DNA of 32,000 nucleotides from Candidatus Saccharimonadota bacterium (GCA_963677765.1 OY782392.1:570001-602000), one strand, 5' to 3'; counted from the first letter of the stretch, positions 1 through 32,000 are shown. The notes: generated by a model from the letters alone, not told the origin. A program made the numbers and translations.

Positions 1-3000
1 GATGAATTAGTTAAGAATTGATTATCAAGAAATATTGCAGTACCTACTACTTATTATTATGAAGATGGTGATGAAAAAAGTACTTATACTAATTATTTGT
101 TTTGAAATAAATGAACTAATTTAGTTTCAGCTGAACAATGTAGTATTTATAGATGAAGTTTAGATAATTGATGAACACTTGTAGAGGCTAATAGAGGTTT
201 AAATATTAATAATATACAAGTTGATCAATGAGTTTTAGATTGATTGCCAATTAGTTGAACTCAAAAGGCTCAATGTTATTCAAGAGTACAAAGTTGAACA
301 GCAATGAATTGAATAAATTGAATGAATACTCCATTTAATTTGGATCAAGATGCTTCTGCTGATTGAGAGCTTAAATTAAAAAACTCTAATTATAAAGGTT
401 CTATAACACCATTGTTTGATATGGGTTGAGCCAAAGCTATAGATGATGAATCAAAAACAAATAATCCTTTTTATTGTATAGATAATAACTATTTATTATC
501 AAATAAAGAAGAATATCTTTCAGAATTTTGGTGAGATTCAAGTTCTTGGGCTACTACTTATAAATTGGGTCAATATACATCAAATGTTGCATGATATTTT
601 TGATGAATGCAATCATGGTCATGTAATAGTACAAATAATGCAATAAATAAGGTTTATAGTTTTACAGATACATTTGATCAAAATTATATTAATTTTGATT
701 TTTGATTTTGTGAAGATAATAAAATATATTTAGATTGAGTTTTAGTTAAGTCATGAAGATATGAACAACTAACTTTTACTAATGATTATGATTATACTAG
801 TGAGGTTTTTGATGAAGATTTATGAGAAAATGTTTTTTTAACTACTACATTTTCATGAGATACTTATGAGTGTGATGGTTATTATATTACTGATCCAGAC
901 TGAAATGTTGTTGATAATTCATTATCATTACGGGAAATAAACACTTATAGATATAAATCTATACCATCTTATATAATGCATAAATCTCCTGAGCCAGAAG
1001 ATTTAACTACTCAATTGGATGTTAAAGTTACACCTAGTTTACCAGTTGATAAAGATAGATATATAGATTTCATTGCAGCTAATGGTTCTTATCAAAAAAT
1101 AAAATACCCATATTTATATAGATTAGAAATTGATGATAAATCAGATTTAAGTATAGAAAAAGTTTCTGAAGCTTTAGATGAAGTTTTAGATGAAAAATCA
1201 TATGAGATTAATCAAATTATACAAGAATCAATACCTAATTCATGATGAAGTACTTCTAATAATAATTCGACTTGAGAGACATGAAGTATAGCTGATTTTT
1301 TCTCGAGTTTATGAGATGTTTTTGATTGAAGTGTTGATAATCCATGAGAATATACTTCTTGATTAACAAATAATTCAAAGTTTATTGATAATCCAGAAAT
1401 TTATGAATTATTAAAAACATGAACTTATCCTCAGGCTAATTTTGATTTAAAACAATATTTAAAATCAAAATGAACTACTACATTAGAATTATGAGGTGAA
1501 TCAAAAACACTTAGTTATTATGATGTTTTAGTATTTGCTATATATTGGAATAATTTAAATTCAGTATCTGCAAAATATTGATTTGTTTTTGAAAATTATT
1601 TATCAGATCAAAATTTATGATGAGAAGAATATTTTTTACCAAAAAATAAATCTCAATATGAAATAGCTTATTTATGAGCTCCTGGATCAGTAACAGATAT
1701 GTATATATGACTAGATCCTGAATCTAAATGAGAAAATCCTTATTCAGATATTATTTGAAATAATCAAGATATATCAACTAAAATACTTTGATTAAATGTT
1801 TGAACTTCTAATTCTTATGATGAATGATTGTTTAAATGTGCTCCACCTGAATGAGTTCCTATTTGGGAATGGATTCCAGCAGTTATGTGTCGGTTATGAG
1901 AAATGTTACCTCCTACAATAAAAATTTCTGATTGAGCATGTTGACCTAGCCTTTTATCAAATGAAGAAAAAGAAGAGTTAGAACAATGTAATTGAGATGT
2001 AAATAAAAATTGAGTTAATGATTGTTTAGAAACTAAATTATCTTCTTGAAATATAGTTTTAGAATCAGATAGTAGTAAATATAATTATAATAAAAATATT
2101 TCATTAAAAGCCTCTATAAAGAGTGAAGATTGAAATGTTTTAACATATTTATGAGCAACTGATATAAAATTTGAATTATTAAAAGTTGAAGCATCAGTTT
2201 CTAGTGAAGAATCTATAGATTCTTGATCTAAAGAGATTATATTTGATTCAAGTTCTTCAACAAAGTCGGATTATTCTTTACTAGAAGGTTATTTATCTTT
2301 TGAACCTCTTACTATTAAGTCTAGTGCTTGAGTTTCAAATCATATGTTGACTACTAAGAATAGAGATTTAAATATTTATTTAAAAGCTAGTATTAATATT
2401 TATGATTCAGAATGAAATTTAAATATTTCAAAAGAGTCTGAAGAGTTAGAAATAAAAGTTAGATGAGATAGATTATTTAATTCTAGTTATAAATTAGATA
2501 ATTCTTCTTGAAATCTTGATATTATAAGTTGAAGTAATTTTGTTAAAGCAAATAGTAATTCAAATATATATTTATTTGATGGTAACATAAATTCAATTGA
2601 ATCAATTAAAAATCTTATTAATAATAATTCTACTTCGCAAGAAAAACTTGCTATAAAATTAGAAAATTTTGATAGATGATGAAATCCAATAAGTATAGCT
2701 TATCCTGTTAATATTATTTTATCTAAAGATTGAGAAACTATAGAAGAAAGAGAGTTAAATGCATCAAATATTTGATCTTTTGCTGAACTTTTTTCACTGA
2801 CTGAGTCATGAGAATATAAATTAGTAATAATTGATTCTAATTGATCTTCAACAAATAGAAATATTGATGTTACAGCTTGAAATCCTTCTAAAATAGATTT
2901 AGAACTTTCTACCACAATTATGGAAATTTGATGAAATGTTTCTACTAATTTCCTTACTATTTTAGATGAATATGATAATCCTGTATCATGAAATTTTTAT

Positions 3001-6000
3001 GATTTAAGATTTAATATTGATTGAAATTGAGTTGTTTTTAATGATAGTAACTCTAAAGATTTTTTAACTACAACTTATGAATGATATAAAATATTTAGGT
3101 TAAAATCTACAAGTAATAAATGAAAAAATACAATTAATGTTGCTTTATTAGATAACGATTGAAATTTTATAATTTCAGAATCAAAAGACTTAGATGTTTT
3201 AGATTGAATAAATATAAATATAAAAAGTTTAACATGAGATTTTAATGTATGATGAGAAGAAAATACTCTTCAAATTGAATTAAGGGATTGAAATTGAAAT
3301 ATTATAAAAAACTTTAATTCAAGAGTTTATCTTATTGTTGATCCAATGTATCTTGATATAGATAAACCTTATTTTGAAATAAATGCTTGAGTTTGATTAG
3401 CTAATTTTAAAACAAAAACTTTAGCGTGACAAGATATTCCTATTGAAATACAAGTAGAAGGACTTTCTACTATTGTAAATGATAGTATTACTATATTACC
3501 AGATAATGCTATTAAAATGGATTTGGTTCTTTCTAAGTCTAGAATGGAAGCTAATCCAGATATTAACTCTAATGTTAGTGTTGAGTTAAAAGATAAATAT
3601 AATAATTTAGTATTTACTGATAATTCAACTATCACAGAAATTGAAATACTACCTGAATATTCTCATATTTTGAGTTCAGATAAGGATAGTCAAGTTGTTT
3701 CTAATGGTAAGTCTATTTTTAAAATATATGGTACTGTTAATCCTTGAGTATGATATTTTAAAATATCTACCAATCCTTCACTTACACAAAATAGTTTTAC
3801 AGTAGAAGATGAAAATTGACAAATTACAATTAATTGAGTTGGTGAAAATGCTTGAAAAATAGAGACTTTTTATGTTTGGAATAAAGATAAAATTTCAAAT
3901 AAATTTTATAATTCAATATATACTACTCTTTTGGGTTCAAATTATTGAGATATTGATACAAAGGATTACTTAGCATGATCAATAATTTTTGATAAAAATA
4001 GTAAATGATTGGCCGTTACTTCTTTGATTAATAATCCTTTTTCATATGATGATACTTTTGGATTTTTTAATAATGGAGCTTTTATAAAGAAATATTCTGA
4101 TTCTGATTTATCACAATACATATCTTCAAATATATCTTTTGATAAATGAAATTTATTTGTAACATTGTTTAATAATTCTTTGAATACTTATATATGAAGG
4201 GTTCAATATAACTTGTGAGATGACTTTGATTTTGATACTTGTGATAAATTAACTAATTGTTGAACTTGAAATAAAACTAAATTATTTTGAGTTAATACTA
4301 ATGAAAACTTTAAATTTTATACAAGTAAAAATAGTCTTGTTTTACAAAATAATGTTTGAAAAAGCTTATTAGAAGTTAATGAAAATTGAACAATAGAAAG
4401 AAAAGGTTTATTGACTTTTGATTTATGAGAATCTAATAGTTCTGGATTAATAATAGATATAAAACAATGAGATACTAAAATTGCATCTTTATTTTATAAT
4501 TTTGTCTGAGCAGATATAGATATTTCTAGAGATGAAACTTCTTTTAGTGCTAAAAAAGATATTTCAAAAAACTCTATACTTATTTATTTAAATTCTTCAC
4601 AATATTGAAGTTATAAAAACTGAAATAATGACTCTTATGAAGTTAATATTTTTTATAATGATCCTTTTGCATCAGATAATGTATTAAATAATTTTTCAAA
4701 ATGAAATAATTATTCTTATGAAAATTTTGAAAATAAATGATGATTATGATGGTATGAATGAAATAAAACATTGTTATCATTTTCTTCATGAGAATCAGTT
4801 TGAGAATCTTTAAAAAATTATGCAAGTTTTTCTAGTATTAATTTATGAGACCCTGTTGTTAGTCTTAAAAAAATTAGAAAGAAATTTAATAATTCTGAAG
4901 AATATAAACAATTTGATTCTACTATATGAAAAGTTTTAAATAATGATGGAGATATTAGAGATTATAGATTATTAGATTATAATTCTGATTTAAGAGATGA
5001 TATTATATTAATTAAAAATGATTGATATATACAATTATTAGAAAATATTGATACAGAAAGTAATTATTTGGATAAGTGAAATCTTGCTAATATAGTTGAC
5101 TTAAAATCTACAGAACTATTAAAAACTTGAGATTTTACATGAGATTGATTTTTTGATATTTTCTTTGTAGGTGATGATTGACAACCTTATATGCTTAATA
5201 ATATAAGCAAAGATTTTTCTAGATTATCATTATACAATAAATTTAGATTAGATTGATCTATAATTAGAGCTGAGGTTTTTGATATGGATAATGATGGAAT
5301 AGATGATATTATTACTCTTGATGATGCTTGAGAAATAAATATTTTTTACTGATCTTGACCTAGTGCTAATCCAAATTTTACTAAACTTACAGTTAGTGAT
5401 GATTATTGAATTAAAATAAGTTCTGATGAAAGAAGTGATTCGGCTTATGTTTATTTTGATTGATTATATCAATTAGATTCTTGATTAGATAATACTGATA
5501 GAATATCAGAAAATGAAGCATATTTGAATGATTTAGTTAATCAAATCAATTCACAAAGTGAAACTGATATGCAAGAAAAAATAGATTATGATCTTATTAA
5601 TAGTATAATTTATGAACAAATAGCTTATAATAAGCCTGATAATTTAGTTGATTCAGTATCTTTAGATGATTTATCTAACTTGCCAAATTCTATAGATCAA
5701 ACTACTTTTATAAGGTCAGAGTATTCTAATTCAGCTTGAGTTGAAATTAAAAAAATATACACTGATAGAAATTGATGATTTTTAGCTTCATGAGATATAG
5801 TTGATATTGAAATTAATATAAGAAATAACTCTTTATCAACAATTGAAAATATTGCATATATAGAAGATGTATTAGAATATTTTACTTTAGATACATCATC
5901 TATCCAAAATAGTAAAGATTTAGAAATAAAAACACCTAGTGTTTATGATTTTATGATTGATGAGTTTTCTTTATCAAGTAATGAAACTTTAACTATAAAT

Positions 6001-9000
6001 TATTCAGTAGAAACAAAAGCTTTAAAATACTGACATATTCAAGTATGACTTTTTGAAGATTGAGAAGCTTGAGATGATTTATTTTGAGATATTTTATTAA
6101 AAGATAATGAAGAAAACTGTTGATTAGAGTTAGAGATTTTTAGATCTACTTCAGTAAGAACTTACCAAAAAGGTATAAAAGAGCCTATTTGTGATGATGA
6201 GATACCAGAAGAATTAAGCCAAAATTGAGTTGATGAAAACAATAATTGAATACCTGATTATATAGAAGAATTAACTTGAAGTACTCAGGCATTACAAGAT
6301 TATTCAGAAGAAACATTAAATGATATGTTTCTTGATAGTGATTGAGACTGATTGCCTGATGAAGAAGATTTGTTTAATTGATGATGAACTATTTCTATTG
6401 ACTTATGAAGTTTATGAGATGATATAGAAAATTGATTAGAATCAGTTGAAAACTTGATCAACTGAATGAGTTGTTGATTTAATAATTGAGCATGTTTTGC
6501 AAGTCCATTAAACTGGGCTCCACTTGCTCCTTGAGGAGATCCAACTTTTAATTGAATGATGATATGAGATTGACTTAATATAGATGAAGGTTTACCTATA
6601 TTTTCAGCTATAACATGGACACCTATTTATGTTCCTGCTTGTGTTCCAATACCTACTGTTTGGCCTATGTCTTCATCTGCTATATGGTCTGCTTGTTCAT
6701 CATGACCAGCATGAATGGATTGAGCTTGAGGTTCTCTATGAGTTTATTCTCCTACAAATACTTTTAGACTTTTTGTTACTCCTACACTAACATGATGAAT
6801 TTGAGTTGCTGCTTGTTTTTGAGCTCCCCCTATAGTTGCTTGATACTCAAACATGCCTTGAATTTCACCATTATTTCCAGGATGAAACTGTATAGTAGTA
6901 GCTAAGCCTTTAATATGATGTAGTAATGATTGATCTGATTGAAACCCTGCTTCTATGTGACAAGTTATAAATTGATGAAGTTTTTGATTTATAAACTGAA
7001 ATTGTAGTGTTGATGATTCTTGAAATTTATCTGTTGATAATTGATATGTTGATAATTACTATGATCATTTAGTTAATTGAACTAATTATGAGTGATTAAG
7101 TTCTGCAAATGAAGCAATTTCTGATCATTCTACAGCTTGAAATTGACCGCTTTTTGCTATAGCTTGAACTTGAAATGAAATATCTGTTACTGTTGATCCA
7201 AATAGTAAATCTGTAGACTTTTCTGATATAACTGAATTAGTTCAAAAAAGAATTCAAGCTTTTCCTTGATTTCTTATGAATTGGGTTACAAGACAAATAG
7301 AAGAAATAGTTACTAAATTAACTGATTTTCCGACTATTTTTGTAATATTACCTGATTTTTCTTGAATTTTTGATACTGACCTTACATGGGAAGAAAATAG
7401 AAAAATGTGGTTTGAAAATTCTTGAAATAAAAATAGAGCTGAATCTATGAATTGAGTTACTTTAGATTCAGATATAACTAAGTGAATTAATACTGATAAT
7501 ATTGAAAATGAAAAATTAAGGAATGCTTCTGAAAGTATAAACAGTGCAAGTTCAACTTTGAATGAAGAATTTAAAAAGGTTGATTCTTGAATTAAAGAAG
7601 CCTATGAATTTATTGGTAGTTTACCTTTGGTAAAAATAGAACAAGAACCAGTAGATATTCAAGTTCCTTGGATTTCTGTAACAGAAATAGATAAAACTAT
7701 TTTAACACGGGAAAAAACAATAGAATCTCGGAGAACAGAAATTAGTAATTTTTCTGATTCTTGGACTTATTGAGCTACATGTGATGAATGAGATCAAGAA
7801 TGTTTAGATAAAAATGCTGCTTATGAAAAGATTATAGTTGACGCAAATGCTTTAGTTTCATCATTAGAAGCTAATTTAGATGCTATAAATGACTACAAAG
7901 AAATTCCAGAAAAAATAAATAAACTTATTACAAAAAAGGAAGAATATTTAGAACAAATATTATGTAATATTGAAACTATTTCTGAAATTTTGGGATGACG
8001 GATAGGTAAAAACTGAGAAAGATTTAAAGCTTGGGTTGAATTATATGTTTTAATAAAAGCTATTTTGAAATCTTGGCAATTATTAATCGATGTATTTGTT
8101 GATTATGAAGAAGAGTGTAAAGAATGTAAAAATGAAAGACAAGATTTACTAGGTTCACAATTCGAATTAATTAGTATGGTTGTTCCAGATATACCTGTTA
8201 TTCAATTTCCAAAATGGCCTGATATTATTATTGATTTACATAATATAAGGGCATGAATGACAGTATTATTACCAGAATTTAATATATCAACTAAGCCTAT
8301 ATTATTACCAGAATTACCAAATCTTTATTTACCAGAATCTCCAAGTGTAAATATTAGTCTGCCAAGTTTACCAGTAATTCCTACTTTAGAAATACCAGAA
8401 TTACCTGACTTACCAAGCTTGCCAACAGTAGAGTTGCCTGATTTACCACCACCACCAACACTACCAAAAATGTTTGCACAATTAGAAGCTATACTTGATG
8501 TATTGAAACTGATAACTAAAGCTATGTGTATATTAAAATCTTCACCATTCCATCCAGAATGGAGGGCTTGAGATCAAATTGCTTTCTTAACAGAAAGAAA
8601 CTGATATCTACCTACTGATTTTCTTAATATATCAATGCCACAATTCTCATTTCCATTTATTGATGCAATAAAAGTTACAACATATGTTAATTTAGAATTT
8701 GAAACAGAATTTATTGTTGAACTTGCTAGACAAGTTGCAATGCCTATAAATAGTTTTACTTCAGATTTCACTAATTTGTTTAATATTAGTACTAATGATT
8801 TAGATTTCAGAGGTTATACTCCTAGTCAAATTGATATTGAAATTTGAACTGATGGTTGAGCTGATACTAATATATGATTAAATGAATCAAATAATTCTAT
8901 TTCTGAATTAGTTACATTTATTCTTACTAAAAATATATTATTAGGTAATGATTATATTAAAGATAATAAAGATGTTACAGTTACTAATTTAGAATTTAAA

Positions 9001-11733
9001 CAACTTATTTCAGAAAACTTATCTTCTGATAAATTTACTTCTGATCCAAGATTTGATGAATTAAGAGAACTTTGGAATAATGTAAATAATTATTCTTATT
9101 CTTGAGAAAATAAACTAATAGATGAGTTACAAAAAAATAATTTTGAAAAATTTGAAACTTTAAAAGATATTGTTAATACAGAAATTATTAAAAATAAATC
9201 ATTTAAAGAAGATTTTAATGATATTATTAATAAGAAAACAATAAAAACTTCTTTATATAGTGATACTCAAGTTGAAAACTATAATAATATGTTGGATACT
9301 TATAATAAGAAGTTTTATGATACTGCTATGAGTTTAGTTTCTTATGATTCAGTAAATGATAAAAATAAACAAGATATTATTAGATCATGAGAAAAATTAA
9401 TCACACAAGTTAATACTGCATTATCTTCTTATACTTCTTGAATTAAAAATACAAATAATTTAATTGCAGCAAATACTACTACTTCAGATAACCAATCTTA
9501 TACTTGAAACAATTATCTTAATAGTGCTGAAAATTCATGTTCTTCTTGAAATAGTAATTCAGATTATTCTTATGTTTATGAATGAATATATATAATAGAA
9601 GATGATAAATCATATAGATTATTTGATTATCTTAGTGAGTTAAGATGAGATGAAGAAGTTGTTATTACTGATAGTGAAAAAGATAGTGATGAAGATTTAT
9701 TATACTTATCTAATGGTACATTATATTTAAAAAATAATTTAGATATAATTGATGAAAATGATGGAAGTAAATCAAATCCATTATTTGTAAGTAAAAATGA
9801 TAATAAATTTTTAAATGATAGTAACTTTATTTCTTCAGTAAATAATGTTAGAGAAAGAAGTGTTTGATCATGAGTTATTAATTTATGATTTACTGGGGTT
9901 CCAGGTATATATAATTATAGATTTAGCTTTTATACTTTAGTTGATAGATTTTTAAATGAAGATAATACTTCATATACACCTATTTTTAGAAAAAAATCTA
10001 TTGTTGATTCTTTTGCTTGAGTAAATGAAGTAACTTTTGTAGAAGAAAATGATAATTATATTATTAGTAAAAATGTTGTTTCTATTGATAATTTATGAGA
10101 TTTAAGATGAGTTAAAATTGAAACAGACGAATTAAAAAATATAACTAATGATATAATAGCAGGTAAGGTAATAGTTTTATCTAACCAAACTAAAGTATAT
10201 TCTTGAGATTCTACAGCTGTAATAAGTTATCTTGATGATAATAATGACTTAAAAAATGTTGTTATATCAAAAAATAGAAATATGGAAGTAAAAGGGTCAA
10301 TGAAAGTTGTTTCTATAACTTGAAATGCATATGTAAAAACTTGAAATGATCTAATACTTGAATGAACTGATATTTTATCATTAAAATGACTACCTCTTTT
10401 TGAATGAACTAAAATATCATATATAGGTAATGATTACGAAGTAAGAGATAATACTTATATTGATTTAAAATATTATGATGGCTCTGAGTTACCAATTTGA
10501 TTTACAAAAATTTCAGATTGGTCATATAATGATTTATGAAATATTTCTACTAATTATCTTCTTTCTATAAGTAGAAATAATGATTATTATTATTGAGTAA
10601 TAAATTGATTTAAAGATTGATTAATATCTACTAGCTCAAAACAAATACTATTATCACCACAAATTCGTGCTGATAATAGTATTCCAGAAATTAATTTTTC
10701 ATCTATAAGAATTCCTGTATATCAACAAATGGATATAAATTTAACAAATAGTATTTATGATAATAATTGAGTAGCTCAAGTTTATATCGATTTTGATTTA
10801 GATATTGATAGTTCATGAGATTGAGATCCAAGAAATGACAATGATAGTTCATCTATGGATACTTTAGATATTTATAGAAATTCTGATTTAGATTTTGTTT
10901 TAAAATTATGAACTTTCAAAGAGTTATATGACAAAGAAATTTGAATAATTGCAATTGATGATAATTGAAACGAGGCTTTTCAAAAAGTAAAATTTGAAGT
11001 ATATAGCCCTATACCAAAAATTGTTAATTATGAAGATAACAATATAATTTGAAATATAAATGAAAATTTAAATCAAGAACCTATCTCTCTATATAGATAT
11101 AGATGATGAGTTATATCTAAACTTACATGAGATGAAAATTGAAATATAGTTTATACACAAGATTGAGAATATAATTTTTGATTAACTGAAAATACTACTT
11201 GAAAAGTAAATATATTTAGTGATTGAGTTGTAATTGCAGAGATTAATGAAAATACTGGTTTAATTAACTTGAATGATTCAAGTTATAATATTGATGTTTT
11301 AGAGTCTAATAATATAAATAACGATACTGTTTATCCAAAAATGGTTTTAAATAAATCTTGAGAAGAATTATTTTATCAAACTATAAAGGTTAAATCATGA
11401 ACTAAAGTTAATATTGTTACTGATTTTTCTGGTATAGAAGAAAATGGTATTTATGTACAATTTTTAGATAAAGTTAATTATAATTTTAATTTAATACCTG
11501 AAAATGCTAGTTATAACTGAGGGGATATGATGATTTATAGATTAAATGATTCTAATAACAGTCCTTTATTTATAATATTTAAAGATTGAAGAATAAATAC
11601 TTTAAATAACAACTATAGCTTAAAATATGATAGTTTTAATGACTATATAGTTATAAAATTATTTGATAATAATTTTAATAGAGAAGTAGCCAGTGTTCTT
11701 TATAAGGTTGATAGTGACTTTATAATAAAATAA
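1..11733 (+). CDS. Giant secreted/surface mosaic protein, 5'-partial (at least 3,910 codons in window), putative adhesin
   Basis: Read codon by codon, frame 1 has no TAA or TAG from nt 1 to the TAA at 11731-11733. The standard-code ORF-track fragments at 976, 3517, 5524, 8065, 8257 and 8635 all lie in this frame and are separated only by TGA. The ORF contains Ig-like repeats, FG-GAP-like repeats (GDFTGDGFFDIFFVGDDG; VFDMDNDGIDDIITLDDAGEINIFYG), DxDxDG-type motifs (DSDGDGLPDEEDLF) and a proline-rich LPxLP block. A strong hairpin follows the stop. Confidence 0.8.
2040..3790 (+). other. Array of Ig-like (Big_1/invasin-like) beta-sandwich repeats inside the giant CDS
   Basis: The translation shows recurring ~90-100-aa modules with the pattern D-x-(D/Y)-(G/N)-N-x-(V/I), then T..G.....(L/I)...., for example TILDEYDNPVSGNFYDLRFNIDGNGVVF...KGKNTINVALLDNDGNFII and VSVELKDKYNNLVFTDNSTITEIEIL...SNGKSIFKIYGTVNPGVGYFKI. 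This is pattern recognition only, with no HMM run. Confidence 0.45.
5128..5352 (+). other. FG-GAP / VCBS-like (integrin-alpha-type) repeats inside the giant CDS
   Basis: The peptides K-T-G-D-F-T-G-D-G-F-F-D-I-F-F-V-G-D-D-G-Q-P-Y-M-L-N-N and V-F-D-M-D-N-D-G-I-D-D-I-I-T-L-D-D-A-G-E-I-N-I-F-Y-G match the D-x-(N/D)-x-D-G-x-x-D-hydrophobic consensus. Several of the Gly residues are TGA-encoded. Confidence 0.6.
8257..8475 (+). repeat. Proline-rich (L/I)P-x-LP peptide repeat block inside the giant CDS
   Basis: The translation reads LLPEFNISTKPILLPELPNLYLPESPSVNISLPSLPVIPTLEIPELPDLPSLPTVELPDLPPPPTLP. This is visible directly in the ORF-track peptide at 8257. Confidence 0.75.
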
Positions 11734-11763
11734 AAAAAGAAAGCTTTTATGCTTTCTTTTTTT
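11732..11763. terminator. Bidirectional rho-independent terminator between convergent genes
   Basis: A 13-bp perfect stem aaaaaaagaaagc / gctttcttttttt has the 6-nt loop ttttat. A-run and T-run flanks allow use on both strands. It starts 1 nt into the giant gene's TAA and overlaps the stop of the minus-strand gene. Confidence 0.8.
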
Positions 11764-12115
11764 ATTTATTATAATATATAGTTATATATTTTGATCTATA
11801 GTATATATTTTGTAGTAAATTATATTTTTTTCTATCATTAAAATTTAAAAAAGATTTCTCTTTATATTTTATTAATGATTTTTCCAATCTTTCTTCAAGT
11901 TTGTTTAATTTAACTATATCTTTTTTATATCTAGCATCCATAAAGTAGTTATCTAGTGCTTTGTTTACTGCTTTTCAATAATCTTCTTCTACTTGAGTTG
12001 TAGTTATAGCCATTTGTTTAAAAACTTTTATTTCATCATTATTAGCATATGAATAATTTATAAAGTTAAAAGTTATTCATAATAAAACTATAGAACTTAT
12101 TAATATTTTTTTCAT
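11762..12115 (-). CDS. Small secreted hypothetical protein (117 aa)
   Basis: The reverse-strand ATG is at 12115-12113 and the TAA at 11764-11762, giving 354 nt. The translation is MKKILISSIVLLGITFNFINYSYANNDEIKVFKQMAITTTQVEEDYGKAV..., with a signal-peptide-like N-terminus and 2 in-frame TGA codons. Confidence 0.6.
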
Positions 12116-12192: not shown

Positions 12193-12221
12193 AAAAAAAG
12201 AGTTAATTTAACTCTTTTTTT
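12193..12221 (-). terminator. Rho-independent terminator downstream of the 741-aa gene
   Basis: A 12-bp stem aaaaaaagagtt / aactcttttttt has the 5-nt loop aattt. It lies 6 nt past the stop at 12227-12229. Confidence 0.7.
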
Positions 12222-18674: not shown

Positions 18675-19558
18675 TGTTTAAAAAAAATAAAATATTTTTA
18701 TTTATATTTTTAACAGTTTTTTTTAGTTTTTTGGTTTTTATAACAAAAAACTATTTTTTTTGATGATTTAATAATTATGAAATAGAATATATTGAACAAA
18801 ATTATATTGATCCAACTATTATAAATGATTTAAATAATGAAAAAATAATAGATGCTAGTTTTGTAGATTTAGATAAAAAAATAGAAGAAAAAATTTTATC
18901 TAATTTAAATTCAGCATCTAAAATAGATTATTCATTTATTCCTCAGTCTTTTTTAGATGAAGAAAAAGCATTTCATCATTATGAAAATTATGATTTATTT
19001 TTAAATCTAGATAACTTTTATTCAAGTATAAAAAATCTAGATGTGATTTTTTATAAAAATAAATGAGTTGTTAGGTGAAATATGAAAAATAAAACTATTA
19101 GACTTTACTGATTAAATGAACTTTCTTATTGAGAGGTTTTATCAGTTTGAATACATGAATTCTCTCATTATTTGGATTTATATATTTTAGACAATAGTAA
19201 ATGAACAGATATTAGTAATGATTTTTATAATATATCTTGGGAGTCAACAAAAGTTTTAAAGGCTTGACTTAGTCAAGTTGATTTTGTTTCATGATATTCT
19301 ATGACAAATAAATATGAAGATTTTGCAGAAAGTTTTACCTATTATGTTTTACATAATGATGACTTTTATACTAAAGCTAAGAAATCAGATTTTTTAATGG
19401 ATAAATATAACTTTTTTAAAAATAATATTTTTAAAAATTGAGAATTTATTACAAATGATTTTAAAAAAACATCTAAAATAGAGGATTATTATCGGGATGT
19501 AACAAAAATAGATTTTTATTTAGAAAATTTTTTGCAGTATTTAAAAAAATGAATATAA
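18674..19558 (+). CDS. Membrane-anchored HExxH zinc metallopeptidase-like protein (294 aa)
   Basis: The ATG at 18674 overlaps the pilin-4 stop. The N-terminal TM segment is MFKKNKIFLFIFLTVFFSFLVFI. The motif SVGIHEFSHYLD (HExxH) is followed ~50 aa later by NKYEDFAESFTYYV. This recalls the HEFGH...EFFAEAF arrangement of anthrax lethal-factor-like (M34-type) zincins. The TAA is at 19556-19558. Confidence 0.6.
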
Positions 19559-21800: not shown

Positions 21801-21837
21801 AAAAGACAAAAACTACTTATTATGTTTTTGTCTTTTT
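21801..21837 (+). terminator. Rho-independent terminator after rnj
   Basis: A 13-bp perfect stem aaaagacaaaaac / gtttttgtctttt has a 10-nt loop and a trailing T-run. Confidence 0.8.
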
Positions 21838-21856: not shown

Positions 21857-22918
21857 ATGAAAAATATTAAAACACTTTTAATTGTTATGTTTTTGTCTTT
21901 ATTTCTTAGTTCTTGTTTAGGTACTCAAAATGAAGATATAAATAAAGCAAAAGAAGAATTATTATGAGAAAATAATTCAAATATTAGTTTAGTTAATGAT
22001 GATTTTGAAGAAACTAGCTTTTCAGGTTCTTTTTTGGATAACAAAGAAAAATATGAAGCTGCGGAAAATACTGAAGTTATAAAAGAAAAATATAGTGTAG
22101 AGTATTTAACTGATGCAAGATTTATAAGTTTGGATTCTTTAGAGTGAAAAGACTTACTTTCTTTAAAGGTTGAATTTACTTGAAAAACTTTGGTTGATAA
22201 TGTGGATAAAATAATAGTTAATTATTCAAATAGTGAATCAGAGTTCCCAGATGATAGATATACATTACAAACTTTTAATCCGGGTGACTCTAATTTTAAA
22301 TATAGAGCATTTGATGATTTCAAAACATTAGATTATTGAGTAAATAAATATTTGATAGAAGCTTATGTTTGAAAAGAGGTTTCAAAATTAGAGGTTATAT
22401 TAAATGTATTTAAAAATGAAGAAGACTATATTGTAAAATCAGAGTCTGAATGAGATTCTACAATTTCTTCTATAGAAAAGCTAAGTATAGATTATTTACC
22501 AGAATCTTCAGAGTATTGAAATCCTAAAGAAATCGGAAATGGTATTTATACTTATTCAGATATCAAATGATTAGAAATTAAAAATATATGAAATATTTGA
22601 TTGGAGCTTGATTCAGACAGTGTTACTAATTTTTTAATTGAAAACAACACAGGATGGTTTTATTGGAATACACTTCGTCCTATATTGTGAGATAATTGAG
22701 TTTCTTTTTATGTTATAAGGTTAGATTGAGAAAATTATTTATATGAAAAACATTATTATTTAGAAAATTGAATTTATTGAGTTGTGTCTTTAGAAAAATG
22801 AACATGAGTTGATTATAAAAATTTAAATGATAAGAATAATGAGTTAGGAGAAAAAAATGATAATTTTACTATAACAAATATAACTGATAAACTTTTTATA
22901 ACTATTTTAAATAATTAA
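21857..22918 (+). CDS. Hypothetical lipoprotein (353 aa)
   Basis: The N-terminus MKNIKTLLIVMFLSLFLSSCLGTQNED has a signal peptide with the lipobox L-S-S-C. The frame is open to the TAA at 22916-22918 with TGA read as sense. Confidence 0.65.
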
Positions 22919-22933
22919 TTTTTAACGAAAATA

Positions 22934-23632
22934 ATGAGAGTACTATTAAAAATATCTTGAGAAGCTTTAGCTTGATGAAATTCTGGTTGATTAGATTATG
23001 TTATGCTAGATGAGGTTTGTGAAACTGTTAAATGATTAATCGATAAAAAAATTGAAGTTTGAATAGTTGTTTGAGCTTGAAATTTTATCAGAGGGGCAGA
23101 AATAGAAAAAATAAATATAGACAGATGTAATGCTGATAATATGGGTATGTTGGCTATAAATATTAATACTATAGCATTAGCTGACGTATTATCTAGAAAA
23201 TGAATTCAAGTAAAGACGGTTAATTCTTTTGCTATTGACTGAGTAGCTGAAAGATTTAATAAGCCAAAAGCATTAAAAGGTTTATCTAAGTGAAAAGTAG
23301 TTATATTTTGAGGATGAACTTGAAATCCATATTTTACTACTGATACTGCATGAGTTCTTAGAGCTCTCGAAATTGAAGCTGATATGATGATAAAAGCAAC
23401 AAAGGTAGATGGAGTTTATACTAAAGACCCTATAAAATATAACGATGCTGAATTTATAAAAAATGCTACTTATGATGAAATAATTACTAAAAATCTAAGA
23501 GTTATGGATTCAACAGCTATAGCTTTAGCAAAAGATAATAATTTAATATTAAAAGTGGTAAGTTTATACGATGAATGAGCTATATTAAAAGCAATTCTTT
23601 GAAAAGATGAAGGTACTACTATTAGTTCTTAA
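22934..23632 (+). CDS. pyrH: UMP kinase (232 aa)
   Basis: The translation contains MRVLLKISGEALAGGNSGGLDY...IEVGIVVGAGNFIRGAE...ADNMGMLAININ...[40 protein letters not shown]. The conserved Gly residues are TGA-encoded. The standard-code ORF 23384..23578 is an in-frame fragment. Confidence 0.92.
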
Positions 23633-23752: not shown

Positions 23753-23995
23753 ATGTTAGGAAAATTAAAAAAAAGAAAAAGACTTAGAGTCCACGGATTT
23801 TTAAAAAGAAGTTCAACAGACTCAGGTAGAAATGTTTTAAAAAACAGAAGAAGAAAAGGAAGACACCAATTAGCAGTTTCTTATCCAAAAAGATTTCAAG
23901 AAATTAATGGTAAAGCTAAAATGCATATAGTTGCTTGAGGTACTGCAAGAAAATCATCTTTTGATGGTAAAGGAAACTATGTAAAAAGAAAATAA
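23753..23995 (+). CDS. rpmH: Ribosomal protein L34 with an unusual C-terminal extension (80 aa under code 25)
   Basis: The sequence [42 protein letters not shown] matches the whole canonical L34. The frame then continues [20 protein letters not shown](TGA 23936-23938)[18 protein letters not shown] to the TAA at 23993-23995. Confidence 0.85.
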
Positions 23996-24020: not shown

Positions 24021-24362
24021 GTGATATCTAAAAAATTTAGATTAACTGAAAGGCAAACAAAAAAGGTTTTACAAAAGTGAAAACCTTTTTTTTCTTATTG
24101 AATAGTTTTAAACCATATTAGAAATAATCTAGGTTATAATAGATTTTCAATAGTTATTTGAGCCAAATCAGTTAATAATAATGTGTGAAGAAATTTCTTT
24201 AGAAGAAGGTTTTTTAACTTTGTTCAAACAAATAATGTTTTTGTTTGATGAAGTGATTATGTTTTTGTTATAAAAAAACAAACAAAACTTGATAAAAATG
24301 ATAAGAAAAGTATATTCTCTTTTGATAAAGATTTAGATTTTTTATTAAATAAAGTAAAATAA
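24021..24362 (+). CDS. rnpA: RNase P protein component (113 aa), GTG start
   Basis: GTG at 24021 is the first plausible start after the in-frame TAA at 24006-24008. The translation is (M)ISKKFRLTERQTKKVLQKGKPFFSYGIVLNHIRNNLGYNRFSIVIGAKSVNNNVGRNFFRRRFFNFV..., with an RNR-type basic motif. The gene sits in the conserved position between rpmH and yidC, and its TAA overlaps the yidC ATG. Confidence 0.7.
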
Positions 24363-25528
24363 TGAAAAAAATATTAGATATTTTATTGATAGCAGTTTTA
24401 ACGATTTTATTGTTTAATCTGTTAGCATGAGATAATGAAAAAAAATTAAATGATACATTAAATATTTCATTTGTTGAAAACAGTTATACTATACCTGCAT
24501 CTGTATGAGTAAATATTAATAATCAAACATCAACTGGAGTAATATTAAATACTTGTAATGATATTAATTTACTATATTCATGAAACAAATTAACTTTTGA
24601 TGAATCTTTTTGTAAAGATATAGAAGTAAAATCATGAGAAAATTATTTGCTTGATTATAAAGATTATTATTCTAAATTTGAAAATGTATGAGAATATACT
24701 TTAAATGCTAAAGTTTGAGAAAAAGAGTATTTTGATCAATTTGAATTAGATAATAAATGAACTATAAAAAAAATATTTATTTATCTTTTCTATGCTCCAA
24801 TTTATAATTTAGTTATATTTTTAATAGAATTATTTAATTGAGTATTTGGTTGGGCTATAGTTTGAGTTACAGTTATATTGAGAATCTTGTTACTTTGGCC
24901 TCAACATAAAATGATGTTAAGTCAAAGAAAGTTACAATCAATTCAACCTAAAATTAAAAAAATTCAAGAAGAATTTAAGTGAAATCAACAAATGATAGGT
25001 ATGAAAATGATGGAATTATATAAAAAAGAAAATGTAAATCCAGTATGATCATGTGGTTTTTTACTTATTCAAATGCCTATATTATTGGTAATATATTATA
25101 TAATTATATGAATACAAAACCCATCTAATATATATTATTTATACGGTTTTCATGATTTATTTACTTTATCTGAAATAAACTTTAGTTTTTATTGATTAAA
25201 TTTATTACAAAATTGATGAATTCAAGGTTTAATTTTAGCTTTAATTGTTGCATTAATACAATTTATACAAATAAAATTATCTCTTATTAATAAATCAAAT
25301 GATGATAAAAAATCATGAGTAGTTTTAGAAAAAAAATCATGAGATGATAAATATAGTAGTATGATGCCTGATCCTGATATGATAAATAAATTTATGTTAT
25401 ATTGAATGCCTGTAATGGTTTGAATATTTACATATAGCTTATTTGCTGCAGTTTGAATATATTGGTGAATTTCTACATTGTTTATGTTATTTCAACAATT
25501 AATTGTTAATAAAATAATTAAAAAGTAA
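24362..25528 (+). CDS. yidC: Membrane protein insertase YidC/Oxa1 family (388 aa)
   Basis: The translation is MKKILDILLIAVLTILLFNLLA...GWAIVGVTVILRILLLWPQHKMMLSQRKLQSIQPKIKKIQEEFKGNQQMIGMKMMELYKKENVNPVGSCGFLLIQMPILLVIYY.... The TAA is at 25526-25528. Confidence 0.85.
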
Positions 25529-25605: not shown

Positions 25606-26283
25606 ATGTTTAAAAAGTCTTTGGCATTATTTATGGTATTATGATTAACTTCAACTAATCTTTTATATTCTTATGATCAAGAAGTTGAATGTTCTTCAGA
25701 TTCAGTTTTCTCTGAATATTCATGTACTCAATGTTTTGATGGTTGAGAAAAATCAGAATGAGCGTATATAAGCTTATTAAGTGATGATTGGGAAAATATT
25801 TCTGGTGTTTCAAAAGTTTTATATACTGAACAACAAAAAATGCCAATAATGCATAACTTAAGTAGTAATGCTTCTTGGTCTCAAACTCCTTCTTCGGAAG
25901 ATTTTTGGAGTTATACTGAAGATTTTGAAAACCTATATTCAGAAGAACAATTATGATATGTTTTACAACCAGGTCAAAGTGTAAAATGGTTAGAATCTAA
26001 TTTATCTTATGCTTATTCTTTGGATACTAATACAGCTTCAAAATGAGAAAATATCTGACTATTAGTTTATTCTATATTAAGTCATAATATATTAGATTCA
26101 GGAGAAGTTTCTATGAATAGTGAGGCTCATAATGAATGTGTTTTGTATAAATCATGAGATGAAAATGATGTTACTCCAACTGTACCACAAACTTTACCTC
26201 AAACAGGTCCTGCTGAATTTTTATTATTATTAATATTAGCAATGATATTAGGTTTTTGAATAATAAGATTTAGAAATAGTTAA
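25606..26283 (+). CDS. LPXTG-type (LPQTG) sortase-anchored surface protein (225 aa)
   Basis: The signal peptide is MFKKSLALFMVLGLTSTNLLYS. The C-terminus is TLPQTGPAEFLLLLILAMILGFGIIRFRNS, that is LPQTG (26194-26208), a hydrophobic helix and a basic tail. The TAA is at 26281-26283. Confidence 0.75.
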
Positions 26284-26311
26284 AAAATAGAGTTTTAAAA
26301 CTCTATTTTTT
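26282..26311 (+). terminator. Rho-independent terminator after the LPQTG gene
   Basis: The palindrome aaaaaatagag-ttttaaaa-ctctatttttt is followed by a T-run. Confidence 0.75.
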
Positions 26312-26427: not shown

Positions 26428-29400
26428 ATGTTTAACTCATTGACACAAATTATATCATTTTATAAATTAATGATAAAATCACAAGTTATGTGAGAATCTA
26501 CTTGATGAGCATGAAGTGAAATAAATAGTCAACTTACAGAAAAAAATAAAGAACAGTACTTAAATGATAATAAAGATTTAATTATCTCTTATTTAGAATG
26601 ACTAGATTCAGATGATGATAATCTTTTGGAGTTTTCTGATTTTTCAGATAATGATAATGATTTATTATCAATTGGTAGAATTATTAGAGCGTTATGAATG
26701 GATACTATAAAATTGCAAGATGGTATTAATATATCTGAAGTAGTTTCTAAAATAAAAAATTTTACATTAGAAGTAAAAGAAGTAACTGATAAATCTACAA
26801 GTCAAAGAGTTGAACTATCTAATGAAGTTGAATCAAATTTATCTTTAGATAATAGATTTTCAAGTTTATCTGAGTTAGATTTATTTAATATAAGAATGGC
26901 TTTCGATAGACCAGTAGATAAGACTTCTTATGATTTTGATAGAAAAGGTGTACAAAGAGCACTTAATAATATGGGATATGATATATCTTATACAAATAGA
27001 AAAGGAGAATTAGTAACTTGAGAAAATGCTATTGATTGAGATTTAGGTTCTGCATATACTAGAGCATTAAAACAATTACAATCTGATCTTTGAATAGCTC
27101 AAACTTGAGTATTAGATCAAACTACAGTTGATTCTTTTCAATCTAGAATCCAACCTCTAATATATAGAGCTGAGCAAAATAATGAATCTTCTAGTGAATC
27201 AAATACAGAAGTATCTCAAAAAGATCAAAGAGATAGAACTATAGAAGAAAATGACTCTAGTTTAAAAATTACATTTTGAGTTGGTAAAACAGATTTTGAA
27301 TGATTAAAAGAAAATATTAATACTCAATCATTTGAATCATTAGCTAAAAGATTATCTTTTGAAGAATTATCAAACTTATACAATAGTCTTATTTCAATAT
27401 CTAGAAAAAATAATTTAAATGAAAGAACTTGAGAATTTAATTTTACTCCTTTCAATATTAGAGAACTTAGAGTTGAACTAGAAAAATATTGATATGAAGC
27501 TGATTGAGTTTTTTGATGAATTGAAATGTGATCACTTTTACAATTAGTAGAAAATATTTATCAAACACAAGAAAAGTTTAATAGTTGAGTAGATTTTAGA
27601 GATAGATTAGCTGTATTATTAGATTATAATGGTGATTGATTTGTTGATAATGAAGTTAGATTTTATACTAAAGAAAAACAATTTTTAGAAGCAATTCAAT
27701 GAGAATCTAATTTTGAAAACTTACTAAAAAATTTATGATATTCTTCAATTACTGAATTTAATAATTCTTTTAATAATAACTATTATTCTGCTAGAGCTGA
27801 ATTTAAAACTAGATTAGCTTCTGTATTATCAGTAGAAGAAGTTTTAAATCCAGGAGCTATGTTAAATAATCCTAGTGCATTAAGAGAATTTAGAGATTCT
27901 AGAGAAAATATATCTAATATTGAATCAGAAGTATCAGAAGTAATAGAAACTCATGAAAAAACAAAAAATTTAGATCCTTTATTAAAGTCTCAAATTAAAT
28001 TACAAGCTGTATGAGCTGTTGTATGATCAGCTACTTGATTATGAGCATCATTTGATGTAAAAGAAGCTACTAATAGCTTAATTGATTCTGCATGATTTGG
28101 TATATTTAATTGAGTTCCATGAATAGGTATTTGAAAAAATATATATAGAACAGAAAATGGTTGATTTAGAGTAGATGCTTGACTTGTAAATTTAATACCA
28201 GTTTTAGGTGCCTCATGAGATTTAACTCAGTGAGAAATTGATGAATTTAAATCATTATTTCCAAATGAATTTTCATGAGATTCTCAAATATCACTATGAG
28301 CAGGTATTTCAACTTTAGGTTGAACTGTTTGAGTTAATTTTAATAATCTAAATGAAAATACTAGATTATGAATAGAAAGAGCTAAAGGACAAATGTCAGA
28401 AGTGTTAGATAAGGTTTTTGAAGATATTCAAGATTGAAAATCATTTGATGAAAGTAATTTTTCTTCTAATGAAAACGATAGAATTGTTTATGAGAGATTA
28501 GCTTGAATGTTAGAAGCTAATTGATGACATACTTCATATTTAAAAGAATGAGCATTAAATAATTATGAAAGAGTTTTATATGAAAATGCAGATTGATTAA
28601 ATTTTAGTTCTTTATGATTTGGTCTTGCTTTTGTTGCAGGATATTTACCTATACCATTAATTTTTGCTTGATGAGAATATCATGATACAGAGTGGTCTAG
28701 TGTAGAAACTTATACTCCAATAGTTGAATCATGAAATTGATATGTTGAGTCATGAATTGAGTGAAATAATGAATTATTAAATAGTTTATCTTCATTTGAA
28801 AATGCTTTTTCTTGGAAAACTCGTTATAATAAAGGATCAGTTGATTTTTTAACAACAACAAATTCTCTTGAAAAAAGATGGGAAGGTTTAAATAGATTAT
28901 CTACTTGAGTTAGAGCTTTAAGAGAATCTAAATTACAAGATTTTTTAGCTTGAATTGATAATAATAATGATAAATGGGTTGTTATTTCAACATTATCTCA
29001 ATATATGAAAAAGGCTAATGATTTTGATAATTGAAATTTATTTTCTTGGAATGAAAAAACATCAGAATTTATAAAAACTGATAGAGAAAGAAGATCATGA
29101 TTTAATGATATGTTTTGATTTAATTTGGATTCTGAAGCAGAAGCTTTATATTCAAAATTGGAATCTAGTACTAACATATGAAAAACTCAACTTATGGGCT
29201 TATGATTTGATGCTACTGCAAGTAAAAATGTTGAAGGAACTACTGTAAAATGAATTGATACACTTTATACTAATTTAAGTATAATGACTGTAGATTGAGA
29301 ACCTTTATTAATCTCTATTACAGATTCTTCAAAAATTGAATCATTTAAACAAACTTTAAATACTTTATCTATAAGTGATGAATTAAAACAAAGTATTATT

Positions 29401-29691
29401 TCATGATTAGAGAACTGAGATATTGAATTAAAATATTATAAAGATCCTGAAGGATTTGATGATAGAATATTATTAACTCAAAAATGAAATTCAGGAACTC
29501 CTCAAATTGATGTTTATCAACCAAACTTTAATACAGTTAATGTATGAATAGGTTTCGCATGAGATAAAAGAGAAAGTGATTGAGGTTCTAATTGATGAGT
29601 AACTTCTACTCCATGAGTTGAATGAGAAGAAGGTCCTGGTACAGGTTGAGGAAATGGTAATCCTTGAAACCAATCAGGATGAAGATGATAA
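26428..29691 (+). CDS. Large hypothetical protein (1,087 aa) with a peptidoglycan-binding (PG_binding_1-like) domain and Gly-rich hydrophobic segments
   Basis: ATG 26428 is the first start after the in-frame TAA at 26407-26409, and the frame is open to the TAA at 29689-29691. Nucleotides 26941-27140 translate to RKGVQRALNNMGYDISYTNRKGELVTGENAIDGDLGSAYTRALKQLQSDLGIAQTGVLDQTTVDSF, which fits the G..V..LQ..L..GY...DG.FG..T..A...FQ...GL..TG pattern. The central segments are LQAVGAVVGSATGLGASF, ISLGAGISTLGGTVGVNF and LGFGLAFVAGYLPIPLIFAGG. The tail is ...GPGTGGGNGNPGNQSGGRG. The standard-code ORF 26698..27021 is an in-frame fragment. Confidence 0.7.
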
Positions 29692-29710: not shown

Positions 29711-29902
29711 ATGAAAATTCTAAAAACTTGACTTTTTGTTATTTTATCTATAATTTATTTAACTTGATGTTCAAATACAAATGTAGATGATAATCATAAT
29801 GATGATAATTTATCAAAATATATTGAATTAGAATCCTTTCAAGATTGAGGTGGTAATTGAAACCCTTCTAAGCAAACTTGAGAAAGAATAAATAATAATT
29901 AA
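29711..29902 (+). CDS. Small lipoprotein (63 aa)
   Basis: The translation is MKILKTGLFVILSIIYLTGCSNTNVDDNHNDDNLSKYIELESFQDGGGNGNPSKQTGERINNN. The lipobox L-T-G-C lies at 29759-29770, with its Gly encoded by TGA at 29765-29767. The gene starts 19 nt after the previous stop. Confidence 0.6.
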
Positions 29903-29910: not shown

Positions 29911-32000
29911 ATGAAAAAATATATAATTTTTATAGCATTTTTAAGTCTATTTGGTAATAGTATTTCACATGCTTGTGATCAGGTATTTGATTGAGGTTTT
30001 TTAAGATATGATTACTCATATAGGTTTTATGATGACTTTCATAATAATACTAACAGTACTATATACTTTAACAACTATAGTGTTGATTTTATAAACTGAT
30101 CTTTCTTAGATTCAGGTTGATCTTTTTGATGGACAAATAATATTGCAAATAATTGATATCAATTATGATCAAGATCAAGTACTAGGGTATTAGAAACATC
30201 TGCACCAAAATGGAGAATTGATTCAAAACCTTCTTCAAGAACTAATTGAACAAGAAATAGTTATGATTTCGGTATAGAATATACTATTGCATATGACTAT
30301 TCTAATAATTATCCAGATTCAAGTGATGATTATTCTCATAAGGAATGTGTTTATTATAGTGTAACTTGGTGTTGAGATGGTGTATTAGATAGCTCTTATG
30401 AAACTTGTGATTATAATGATCCAAATCAATTATGATGGTGAACAGGAGGTTGTAATACTAGTTGTGAACCTATAAATGATACAACTTCAAGTTCAAGTTC
30501 GTCTAGTTCTTCTAGTTCGTCATCATCTAGTTCGAGTAGTTCATCTTCAAGTTCTAGTTCATCTAGTTCATCATCATCTAGTTCAAGTTCGTCTAGTTCT
30601 TCTAGTTCGTCATCATCTAGTTCGAGTAGTTCATCTTCAAGTTCTAGTTCATCTAGTTCATCATCAAGTTCAAGTAGTTCTTCTAGTTCTTCAGGTTGAT
30701 CAAGCTCTTCAGGTTGAAGTAGTAGCTCATGATGATCAAGCTCTTCAGGATGATCTAGTAGCTCATGATGATGAACTCCAGATACATTTTGTTGAGATTG
30801 ATCAGTTCAAAGACCTAGTAATAATCCTTATTCTTGTGTTACATGATATGATTCTACATGAAATCCTATTAATTGAGAATGTTATGAATATATTTTAGAA
30901 GAATGTGATTATTGATCTTGAACATGGCCTTCTTGGTGTTGAGCTCCATGAACTTCGAGTCAATGTAAAATTACATGAGAATTATCTTTTCCATGAACTG
31001 GTGAATTAATATTTTGACCAGAGGATAATGTTACAATTTGAGATTGAATGAACCCATATTTTACTTATTCTCTTAGTAAACCTTATATTAGAAATAATTC
31101 GTCTTTTGATTACCATTTTGATGAATTATGTGTAGTTAAAAAATCATGAAATACTTTGGATTGAAGTACTACATGTCAATCTATGCCAGATATATTATGA
31201 GCATGACAAACTTATTATTTTACTAATTATCCTATATTAGTTTGAAATACAAGTAGTTTAACAGCATGAACTTATGATGATAATTTGGTAGTTACAACAT
31301 TGAAAAATGATGGTAGATTATATGATGATGCTTTCTTTGCAGCTGAATTATGAGTTAGAGTTTCTAAACCTAGTATAGCTACAACATGATGAGGTACTAG
31401 TTTTCTTAGTTCTACTGATTGAATATCTAATGTAAGTGTTGTTACAAATAATAAATCTAATAGTGATGAAAATAAAAACTTTGTATGATTAGGAGTTTCT
31501 ACATGAGATATTTCTAGTTATTCAGATGAACTTAATGATTCATCTTCTATAGATTTAGTTAAACAAGAATGAGATGACTATAGTATAAAATCAAACTCTA
31601 ATTCTGAGTCTACATGAATTACATTAGCAACTTCTAATAGCTTATCAGATTTTGAAAGTTATAATTGAATAAGTAATGCTTTTGTTTTGAGGGATACAGA
31701 CTTTATAATTAATTCTTCAACTCTATATTGAGAAACTTGAGTAAGAACATATATAATAGAGTGAGGTAATTTGTTTATAAATTGAAATATATTATATCCA
31801 AGTAATATTGCTTTTGTTGTAAAAGGTTGAAATATTATTATAAATAAAGATGTTTCAAGAATAGAATGAACTTATATTACTATAGCTAATTGAAGTGAAG
31901 GTTGAGATATAAAATCAGACTGAATAAAAACAACTAATACTTTAAATGTATTTTGATCATTGTATTGAAATACAAATGATTTAGTAAATAATAGAACTTA
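29911..32000 (+). CDS. Secreted Cys-rich-repeat / poly-Ser surface protein, 3'-partial (at least 696 codons)
   Basis: The signal peptide is MKKYIIFIAFLSLFGNSISHA. The motif WCGDGVLDSSYETCDYNDPNQLGWGTGGCNTSCEP resembles the CGDG...ECD...C cysteine-rich repeat known from Myxococcus. A 69-Ser run (30487-30693) and (S4G2)n follow, then a second FCGDGSVQRP...EECDYG. Later repeats such as GGNLFINGNI and KGGNIIINKDV look beta-helix-like. The frame stays open to the window end. Confidence 0.75.
30491..30666 (+). repeat. Perfect 90-bp tandem duplication (about 1.96 copies) inside the poly-Ser tract
   Basis: Nucleotides 30491-30580 are identical to 30581-30666, at which point the copies diverge. This was verified block by block in 10-nt blocks. 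It also explains the duplicated peptide in the artefactual ORF 30476..30898. Confidence 0.95.

Follow-up and report, generated by a model that had tools for sequence, protein, structure and literature searches.

The 32,000-nucleotide stretch of DNA analysed here (OY782392.1:570001-602000, assembly GCA_963677765.1, deposited as Candidatus Saccharimonadota bacterium; referred to below, at its full length, as the window) is best explained, on the basis of sequence comparison, as a segment of a Gracilibacteria genome in which UGA encodes glycine (Gly) and whose code would be NCBI table 25 with the additional reassignment of CGG to tryptophan (Trp), a reading to which we assign a probability of about 0.9. 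Table 25 is the code of Candidate Division SR1 and Gracilibacteria (Campbell 2013 and Rinke 2013, cited in PMC8629427). The glycine identity of UGA is, taken by itself, as good as certain, and the evidence set out below supports the view that this codon is neither a stop nor Trp in the window, i.e. that the window carries the known SR1/Gracilibacteria recoding. UGA=Gly is already established for both groups, and the recoding as such is not new. A note made earlier from the sequence alone (the original prediction) had proposed table 25 for the whole window, and its individual claims are taken up where the results bear on them.

Reading frames and the identity of UGA

Under the standard table (code 11) the window, which has a G+C content of 23.4%, contains just 14 stop-to-stop frames of at least 100 amino acids, the longest of 140, that jointly cover 15% of the DNA; the description of its standard-table products as fragments of only 60-140 amino acids is thus borne out. 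With TGA read as sense, 18 long, non-overlapping open reading frames (ORFs) appear and, with rpmH and a gene for a 63-residue lipoprotein, make up the 20 ORFs that had been foreseen. These are collinear and account for 96.5% of the window; across their roughly 10,300 codons TGA occurs in frame 617 times, whereas TAA and TAG never occur internally. All 19 complete ORFs terminate at TAA, and of the TAA/TAG stops originally proposed only the former therefore stand: over the same codons TAG is found neither in frame nor as a stop, yet as a trinucleotide it occurs 646 times on the + strand. CGA and CGC likewise have no in-frame use.

These counts bear directly on whether the TGA codons could be true code-11 stops, met with in pseudogenes or through systematic sequencing error, or passed by selenocysteine insertion or programmed read-through. 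Formal possibility is the one thing that speaks for such a reading, the probability of which we regard as effectively nil given the imbalance between TGA and TAA/TAG, the position of TGA on catalytic-motif glycines of essential genes, the retention of the same TGA pattern in at least 60 independent assemblies and, for selenocysteine, a codon frequency (6%) that is far too high. Along with a phage origin, we dismissed selenocysteine, sequencing error and pseudogenes in view of the codon frequency, the gene content and the conservation seen in different assemblies.

TGA is the final sense codon, directly before TAA, in three ORFs (17452-17856, 18270-18674 and 26428-29691, with stops at 17854-17856, 18672-18674 and 29689-29691), and these terminal codons may be relics of ancestral TGA stops. 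They are also what a context-dependent UGA, usually Gly yet acting as a stop at the ends of certain genes, could appeal to, although the same arrangement could be just such a relic. No terminal TGA is more than a few codons away from a TAA, so that no gene needs TGA for termination, and loss of release factor 2 (RF2) has been described for reassigned lineages (gTranslate preprint 10.64898/2026.05.24.727570; PMC8629427); we consider context dependence highly improbable.

Codons were counted over the 18 ORFs (10,154 codons). With TGA taken as Gly the glycine codons comprise TGA 611, GGT 109, GGA 39, GGG 4 and GGC 2, and the impression that TGA is the most-used Gly codon, originally formed by eye, is confirmed by its 80% share; TGG occurs 63 times (0.62%). 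The resulting composition is 7.5% Gly and 0.62% Trp, compared with 1.5% and 6.6%, respectively, were TGA to be Trp. Profile scores, which the original prediction had put forward as a check, favour Gly, the Gly translation beating the Trp translation in all nine Pfam families compared (e.g. AA_kinase, 108.7 vs 71.0 bits; Glycos_transf_1, 86.2 vs 52.9; Ribonuclease_P, 35.3 vs 25.7; 60KD_IMP, i.e. yidC, 135.2 vs 125.9; Wzy_C, 56.5 vs no match), with the exception to this trend that the Glyco_transf_4 model, covering the N-terminal part of the family 4 glycosyltransferase (GT4), is indifferent (31.1 for Gly, 31.8 for Trp). Against NCBIfam models, the Gly translation alone passes the cut-off both for pyrH (TIGR02075, pyrH_bact; 261.9 vs 220.7 bits, cut-off 243.9) and for RNase J (TIGR00649; 467.1 vs 385.7, cut-off 400), the corresponding code-11 fragments reaching 34 and 58 bits.

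To compare TGA positions with proteins of standard-code organisms, pyrH, RNase J, GT4 and YidC were aligned, with each TGA masked as X, to structures in the PDB. Of 225 pairs of a TGA with a homologous residue, 130 involve Gly, 20 serine (Ser), 18 alanine and one Trp, and BLOSUM62 scores summed over these pairs come to +655 (Gly), +57 (Ser) and -524 (Trp). Columns holding the genome's own GGN codons, used as a control, are Gly in 57 of 87 cases, a rate about equal to that of the TGA columns. Among the 80 distinct TGA sites covered, Gly occurs in at least one homologue at 54 and in all homologues at 29, including the glycines of HxHxDHIG and HTGDF in RNase J, KISGEAL and VVGAGN in UMP kinase, and EEDFG and AAGKP in GT4. 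Every TGA coordinate given in support of the claim that TGA falls on invariant glycines proved to be in frame and in the peptide context described: 22958 in K-I-S-x-E-A-L and 23072 and 23078 in V-V-x-A-x-N of pyrH, 20324 in H-A-H-L-D-H-I-x and 20582 in H-T-x-D-F-K of RNase J, and 29765 in the lipobox L-T-x-C; the GT4 motifs EEDFxIVPIE and AAxKPV were found in the translation.

For placement of the organism, GTDB species representatives were scanned with the masked RNase J. The scan recovered 62 related loci at 53-84% identity, followed by a group of eight standard-code outgroups at 31-36%. The titles of the 62 loci read Candidatus Gracilibacteria, 'Peribacteria', Patescibacteria group or bacterium, and include the oral taxa HOT-871 and GN02-872; by these sequence matches the lineage is identified as NCBI Candidatus Gracilibacteria (BD1-5/GN02; GTDB class JAEDAM01). 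All window genes were then compared codon by codon with the related and outgroup loci. Opposite window TGA the related loci carry TGA in 44.5% and GGN in 24.7% of pairs, and TGG in only 5 of 9,411, whilst the outgroup loci carry GGN in 61%. Opposite window TGG the related loci have TGG in 77% of pairs and TGA in 4 of 1,094, in agreement with the proposal that TGG is kept for Trp. TGA therefore exchanges with GGN and not with TGG, indicating that it is synonymous with GGN and excluding code 4.

Code 4, in which UGA is Trp as in Mycoplasma and several insect endosymbionts, has in its favour that TGA is a sense codon, that the genome is small and AT-rich, and that a public protein identical to the window RNase J (P0001) shows W at all 36 TGA codons, i.e. 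is a code-4 translation, so that at least one pipeline chose this code. That entry is explained by pipelines that test just tables 11 and 4, and the CheckM heuristic cannot separate table 4 from table 25 (gTranslate preprint 10.64898/2026.05.24.727570). The wider pattern in public databases also fits such pipelines: amongst the 120 closest public RNase J entries, about 108 show W in at least one of these 36 glycine columns and about 12 in none. The original expectation that standard annotation would leave the contig blank thus holds for code 11 but not in practice, the exact RNase J being public in code-4 form. Code 4 is contradicted by the scarcity of Trp amongst the structural homologues (1 vs 130 Gly in 225 pairs), by the composition it would impose, by the near absence of TGA/TGG exchange in relatives where TGA/GGN exchange is free, and by the failure of the Trp translations of pyrH and RNase J to reach their NCBIfam cut-offs. 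The column tallies, favouring Gly over Trp, led us to reject it, and we leave it a minute chance.

CGG codons at tryptophan positions

With UGA assigned to Gly, the remaining departure from expectation concerns codons nominally assigned to arginine (Arg). These number AGA 191, AGG 18, CGG 6, CGT 3 and CGA and CGC 0, AGA making up 88%; CGG thus has a frequency of 5.8 per 10,000 codons. It is an oddity that CGG, the G+C-richest Arg codon, is commoner than CGT in a genome of 23% G+C. Five of the six CGG codons lie in the giant ORF that opens the window, for which partners were taken from 45 fetched metagenome loci, and the sixth lies in a peptidase-like ORF (# marks the CGG position):

931-933 (+), giant ORF codon 311: relatives TGG 4, CGG 1, ATA 2, TCC 1
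1891-1893 (+), giant ORF codon 631, in the conserved motif WEWIPAVMC#LGEMLPPTI: relatives CGG 15, TGG 11
7708-7710 (+), giant ORF codon 2570: relatives TGG 21, CGG 7, other Arg codons 0
7729-7731 (+), giant ORF codon 2577: relatives TGG 28, CGG 12; TGG in the 92%-identical locus L071
7999-8001 (+), giant ORF codon 2667, in the conserved motif ILGG#IGKNGERFK: relatives TGG 29, CGG 14, TAT 1
19493-19495 (+), peptidase ORF, in DYY#DVTKI: 51 related loci with CGG 35, TGG 16, AGA/AGG/CGT 0

The sequence contexts of these sites are strongly conserved. Pooled over the six (213 pairs), the partners are TGG in 51%, CGG in 39%, and another Arg codon or a lysine (Lys) codon in none, whereas the window's AGA, AGG and CGT codons, as a control, are paired with Arg in 56%, Lys in 20% and TGG in 0.02%. 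Exchange in the converse direction is also observed, relatives having CGG opposite window TGG in GT4 (YLWDWTNEY), YidC (LLLWPQHK), Wzy and a lipoprotein. In a majority test, most partners are TGG at all six window CGG codons, and, for the window and related loci together, 106 of 173 CGG codons occupy TGG-majority sites, nearly all of these being in loci with a G+C fraction below 0.30. Position and base composition are correlated across the relatives, CGG being at Trp sites where the G+C fraction is below 0.30 and at Arg/Lys sites where it is at least 0.36. CGA in the loci below 0.30 stands at Arg/Lys positions in 24 cases, at variable positions in 22 and at Trp positions in none. This CGG/CGA tally was made on non-overlapping longest ORFs, as conserved antisense ORFs had given spurious Leu/Phe partners in an all-against-all tally.

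Since the six CGG codons behave as Trp, a literal table 25 is probably incomplete for this organism, and on this comparison we consider it very likely that CGG encodes Trp. Read strictly, table 25 would keep UGA=Gly and CGG=Arg, and the CGG/TGG pattern would reflect true Arg/Trp polymorphism at a few tolerant sites. This is the code on record for the clade (PMC8629427; gTranslate preprint 10.64898/2026.05.24.727570); the GC-richer relatives do have CGG at Arg/Lys positions, and at the one site covered by such models Peptidase_Mx1 and Peptidase_Mx slightly favour R, by 0.4 and 1.8 bits. CGG does not, however, behave as Arg at the six window sites. Polymorphism is difficult to reconcile with 0 of 213 partners being AGA, AGG, CGT or Lys, as against 76% Arg and Lys combined for true Arg codons in a genome where AGA is the dominant Arg codon, or with CGG/TGG swaps inside invariant motifs that separate the window even from a 92%-identical relative. 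We therefore regard an unmodified table 25 as unlikely.

Certain points weigh against table 25 with CGG=Trp as the code of this genome. The Pfam scores at the peptidase site (R 32.2, W 31.8, X 31.3 bits) do not discriminate; the case for CGG=Trp draws on six window codons and on comparison inside the clade; and ARAGORN detected no tRNA gene in the window, so that tRNA-Gly(UCA) and tRNA(CCG) are only presumed for the organism's own genome.

A further question is whether CGA has followed CGG. Codetta predicts CGG=Trp for some Gracilibacteria, an assignment named by Shulgina & Eddy only as a possible extension (PMC8629427), and the same authors argue that a CGA/CGG split is hard to reach where one tRNA(UCG) reads both codons (PMC8629427). 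We lean, with appreciably less assurance than for CGG itself, towards a split CGA/CGG box, i.e. a code present in no NCBI table in which a bacterium of the Candidate Phyla Radiation (CPR) would combine UGA=Gly and CGG=Trp, CGA being either retained for Arg or dropped from it.

Decoding apparatus and known codes

ARAGORN, run over the window and all 115 fetched loci, returned one tRNA(UCA) and no tRNA(CCG). The tRNA(UCA) lies at 17178-17256 (+) of a relative, L061, whose RNase J is 71% identical to that of the window, and has an encoded CCA. Its cloverleaf contains G1:C72, C2:G71, G3:C70 and discriminator U73, the features by which Shulgina & Eddy call tRNA-Gly(UCA) (PMC8629427). ARAGORN labels it 'SeC', and it yields no Rfam call at the gathering threshold, the identification coming from the ARAGORN cloverleaf and reading of the sequence. 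Loss of RF2 is given as a hallmark of these reassigned lineages (gTranslate preprint 10.64898/2026.05.24.727570). Shulgina & Eddy detected RF2 solely in the two 'Gracilibacteria' species without tRNA(UCA) (PMC8629427).

On this explanation the ribosomes read UGA as glycine, for which it is now the main codon (80%); UGG stays Trp, and UAA is the one stop observed. In the mechanism we propose, by analogy with relatives and the literature, UGA would be decoded by a tRNA-Gly with anticodon UCA, and RF2 would have been lost, leaving release factor 1 to terminate at UAA; for the tRNAs and release factors of this genome itself we infer this indirectly. The rare CGG (6 of about 10,300 codons) would very probably be read as Trp, not Arg, in which case the actual code is table 25 plus CGG=Trp.

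Set beside the codes already described, the window resembles table 25 in having UGA as an abundant Gly codon and UGG as Trp, in its AT-rich and small genome, in having Gracilibacteria as closest relatives and in the tRNA(UCA) with Gly identity elements in one of these; it differs from table 25 in that CGG behaves as Trp and CGA, CGC and TAG are unused. The code assigned by Codetta to Absconditabacteria (SR1), with UGA=Gly and both CGA and CGG as Trp (Shulgina & Eddy 2021, PMC8629427), is similar in combining UGA=Gly with CGG at Trp positions, low G+C content, very rare CGG and AGA as main Arg codon. Unlike Absconditabacteria, the organism falls on the BD1-5/Gracilibacteria side, CGA is missing from the window and in low-GC relatives never stands at Trp positions, and only CGG appears reassigned. 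Table 4, used by Mycoplasmatales, Entomoplasmatales and insect endosymbionts, is shared as regards a sense UGA, an AT-rich, reduced genome and TAA as preferred stop, but differs in the amino acid, UGA being Gly rather than Trp and TGA exchanging with GGN rather than TGG.

Gene content, terminators and implications for annotation

The window represents an ordinary, gene-dense stretch of a Gracilibacteria/BD1-5 chromosome with housekeeping and cell-envelope genes (rpmH-rnpA-yidC, pyrH, rnj and a giant surface protein). Its ORFs are as follows:

1-11733 (+): giant ORF, 5'-truncated by the window edge, at least 3910 aa; 242 TGA, 23 TGG, TAA stop, five of the six CGG codons
11762-12115 (-): small ORF with signal-peptide-like N-terminus; 2 TGA, TAA stop
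12227-14452 (-): ORF of 741 aa lacking any Pfam match; 28 TGA, TAA stop, hairpin after it at 12193-12221
14490-15734 (-): O-antigen ligase/Wzy_C membrane protein; 32 TGA, Pfam match solely with TGA=Gly, hairpin at 14452-14492 after the stop
15799-16929 (-): GT4 glycosyltransferase; 22 TGA, including the EEDFG and AAGKP glycines
17037-17459, 17452-17856, 17874-18260 and 18270-18674 (+): four tandem small membrane-protein genes, the last three matching T4SS_pilin (PF18895)
18668-19558 (+): Peptidase_Mx1-like ORF; 12 TGA, CGG codon at 19493-19495
19826-21787 (+): RNase J; 36 TGA, with the HxHxDHIG glycine encoded at 20324-20326 and that of HTGDF at 20582-20584; hairpin at 21801-21837 after it
21857-22918 (+): lipoprotein-like ORF with LSSC lipobox; 17 TGA
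22934-23632 (+): UMP kinase, pyrH; 17 TGA, those at 22958, 23072 and 23078 being Gly in 3/3 solved UMP kinases aligned
23753-23995 (+): rpmH, ribosomal protein L34 (52.8 bits); 1 TGA, 38-aa C-terminal extension
24021-24362 (+): rnpA, RNase P protein, GTG start; 6 TGA
24362-25528 (+): yidC membrane insertase; 21 TGA
25606-26283 (+): 225-aa ORF with C-terminal membrane anchor; 8 TGA, hairpin terminator at 26282-26311
26428-29691 (+): 1087-aa ORF with PG_binding_1 domain; 75 TGA
29711-29902 (+): 63-aa lipoprotein; lipobox L-T-G-C, its G being TGA 29765-29767
29911-32000 (+): ORF running past the 3' window edge; 58 TGA, long poly-Ser tract

The giant ORF had been assigned to the FG-GAP family; motifs of DxDGDG type, their G positions encoded by TGA, are present as described, but the family assignment itself is weak, the sole Pfam signal being FG-GAP_3 at 23.1 bits, below the cut-off of 26.9. 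The same ORF has, besides these calcium-type motifs, a proline-rich PxLPxLP stretch, and homologues occur in 45 metagenome contigs. The genes at 17037-18674 are small and overlapping, and three of them match the T4SS_pilin/TrbC-VirB2 families. No Pfam family matches the 38-aa C-terminal extension of rpmH, which shows strong conservation across more than 30 related loci. At 30490-30772 the ORF running off the 3' edge encodes a poly-Ser tract of about 90 residues followed by (SSSSGG)n; the Ser codons are mixed, the SSSSGG glycines are mostly TGA, and a perfect 90-bp tandem duplication spans 30490-30666.

The original prediction had also placed the stops directly in front of hairpin terminators. 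When the 60 nucleotides 3' of each of 17 stops were folded, a strong hairpin with a T-run was found directly after six (11733(+), 11762(-), 12227(-), 14490(-), 21787(+) and 26283(+); z from -3.6 to -6.2), for which the claim stands; at the remaining stops it does not, these belonging to genes that lie inside operons or that overlap or abut the next gene. A scan of the window for G+C-rich terminators gave 1 site against 1.7 expected and is uninformative in DNA this AT-rich. One hairpin is common to two of the stops:

11731-11764 (no strand assigned): perfect 14-bp stem with an A-run on one side and a T-run on the other, common to the giant ORF and the 11762-12115 ORF, which are convergent (z=-6.2 and -5.7)

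The hairpin is terminator-like and could terminate transcription in both directions. AT-rich hairpins resembling it stand after four further operon ends.

The consequences are most immediate for annotation. Under code 11 the contig looks empty, and when code 4 is used instead, as is common, some 6% of residues come out wrong (36 spurious Trp in this RNase J); entries translated in this way have damaged lipoboxes, Gly-rich loops and catalytic glycine motifs, with poorer homology search and structure prediction across the clade. The CGG=Trp signal would mean that even table 25 does not wholly fit the AT-rich branch, and would back, independently and at the level of codons, a Codetta prediction with little follow-up so far. 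If the split box is real, every CGG in these genomes is still mistranslated when table 25 is used for annotation, and the boundary of the reassignment falls between the low-GC and the high-GC relatives. The value of the finding is practical, lying in the mistranslation it exposes in public resources, and the scientific addition is a modest one: this AT-rich branch probably needs table 25 with CGG=Trp and a split CGA/CGG box.

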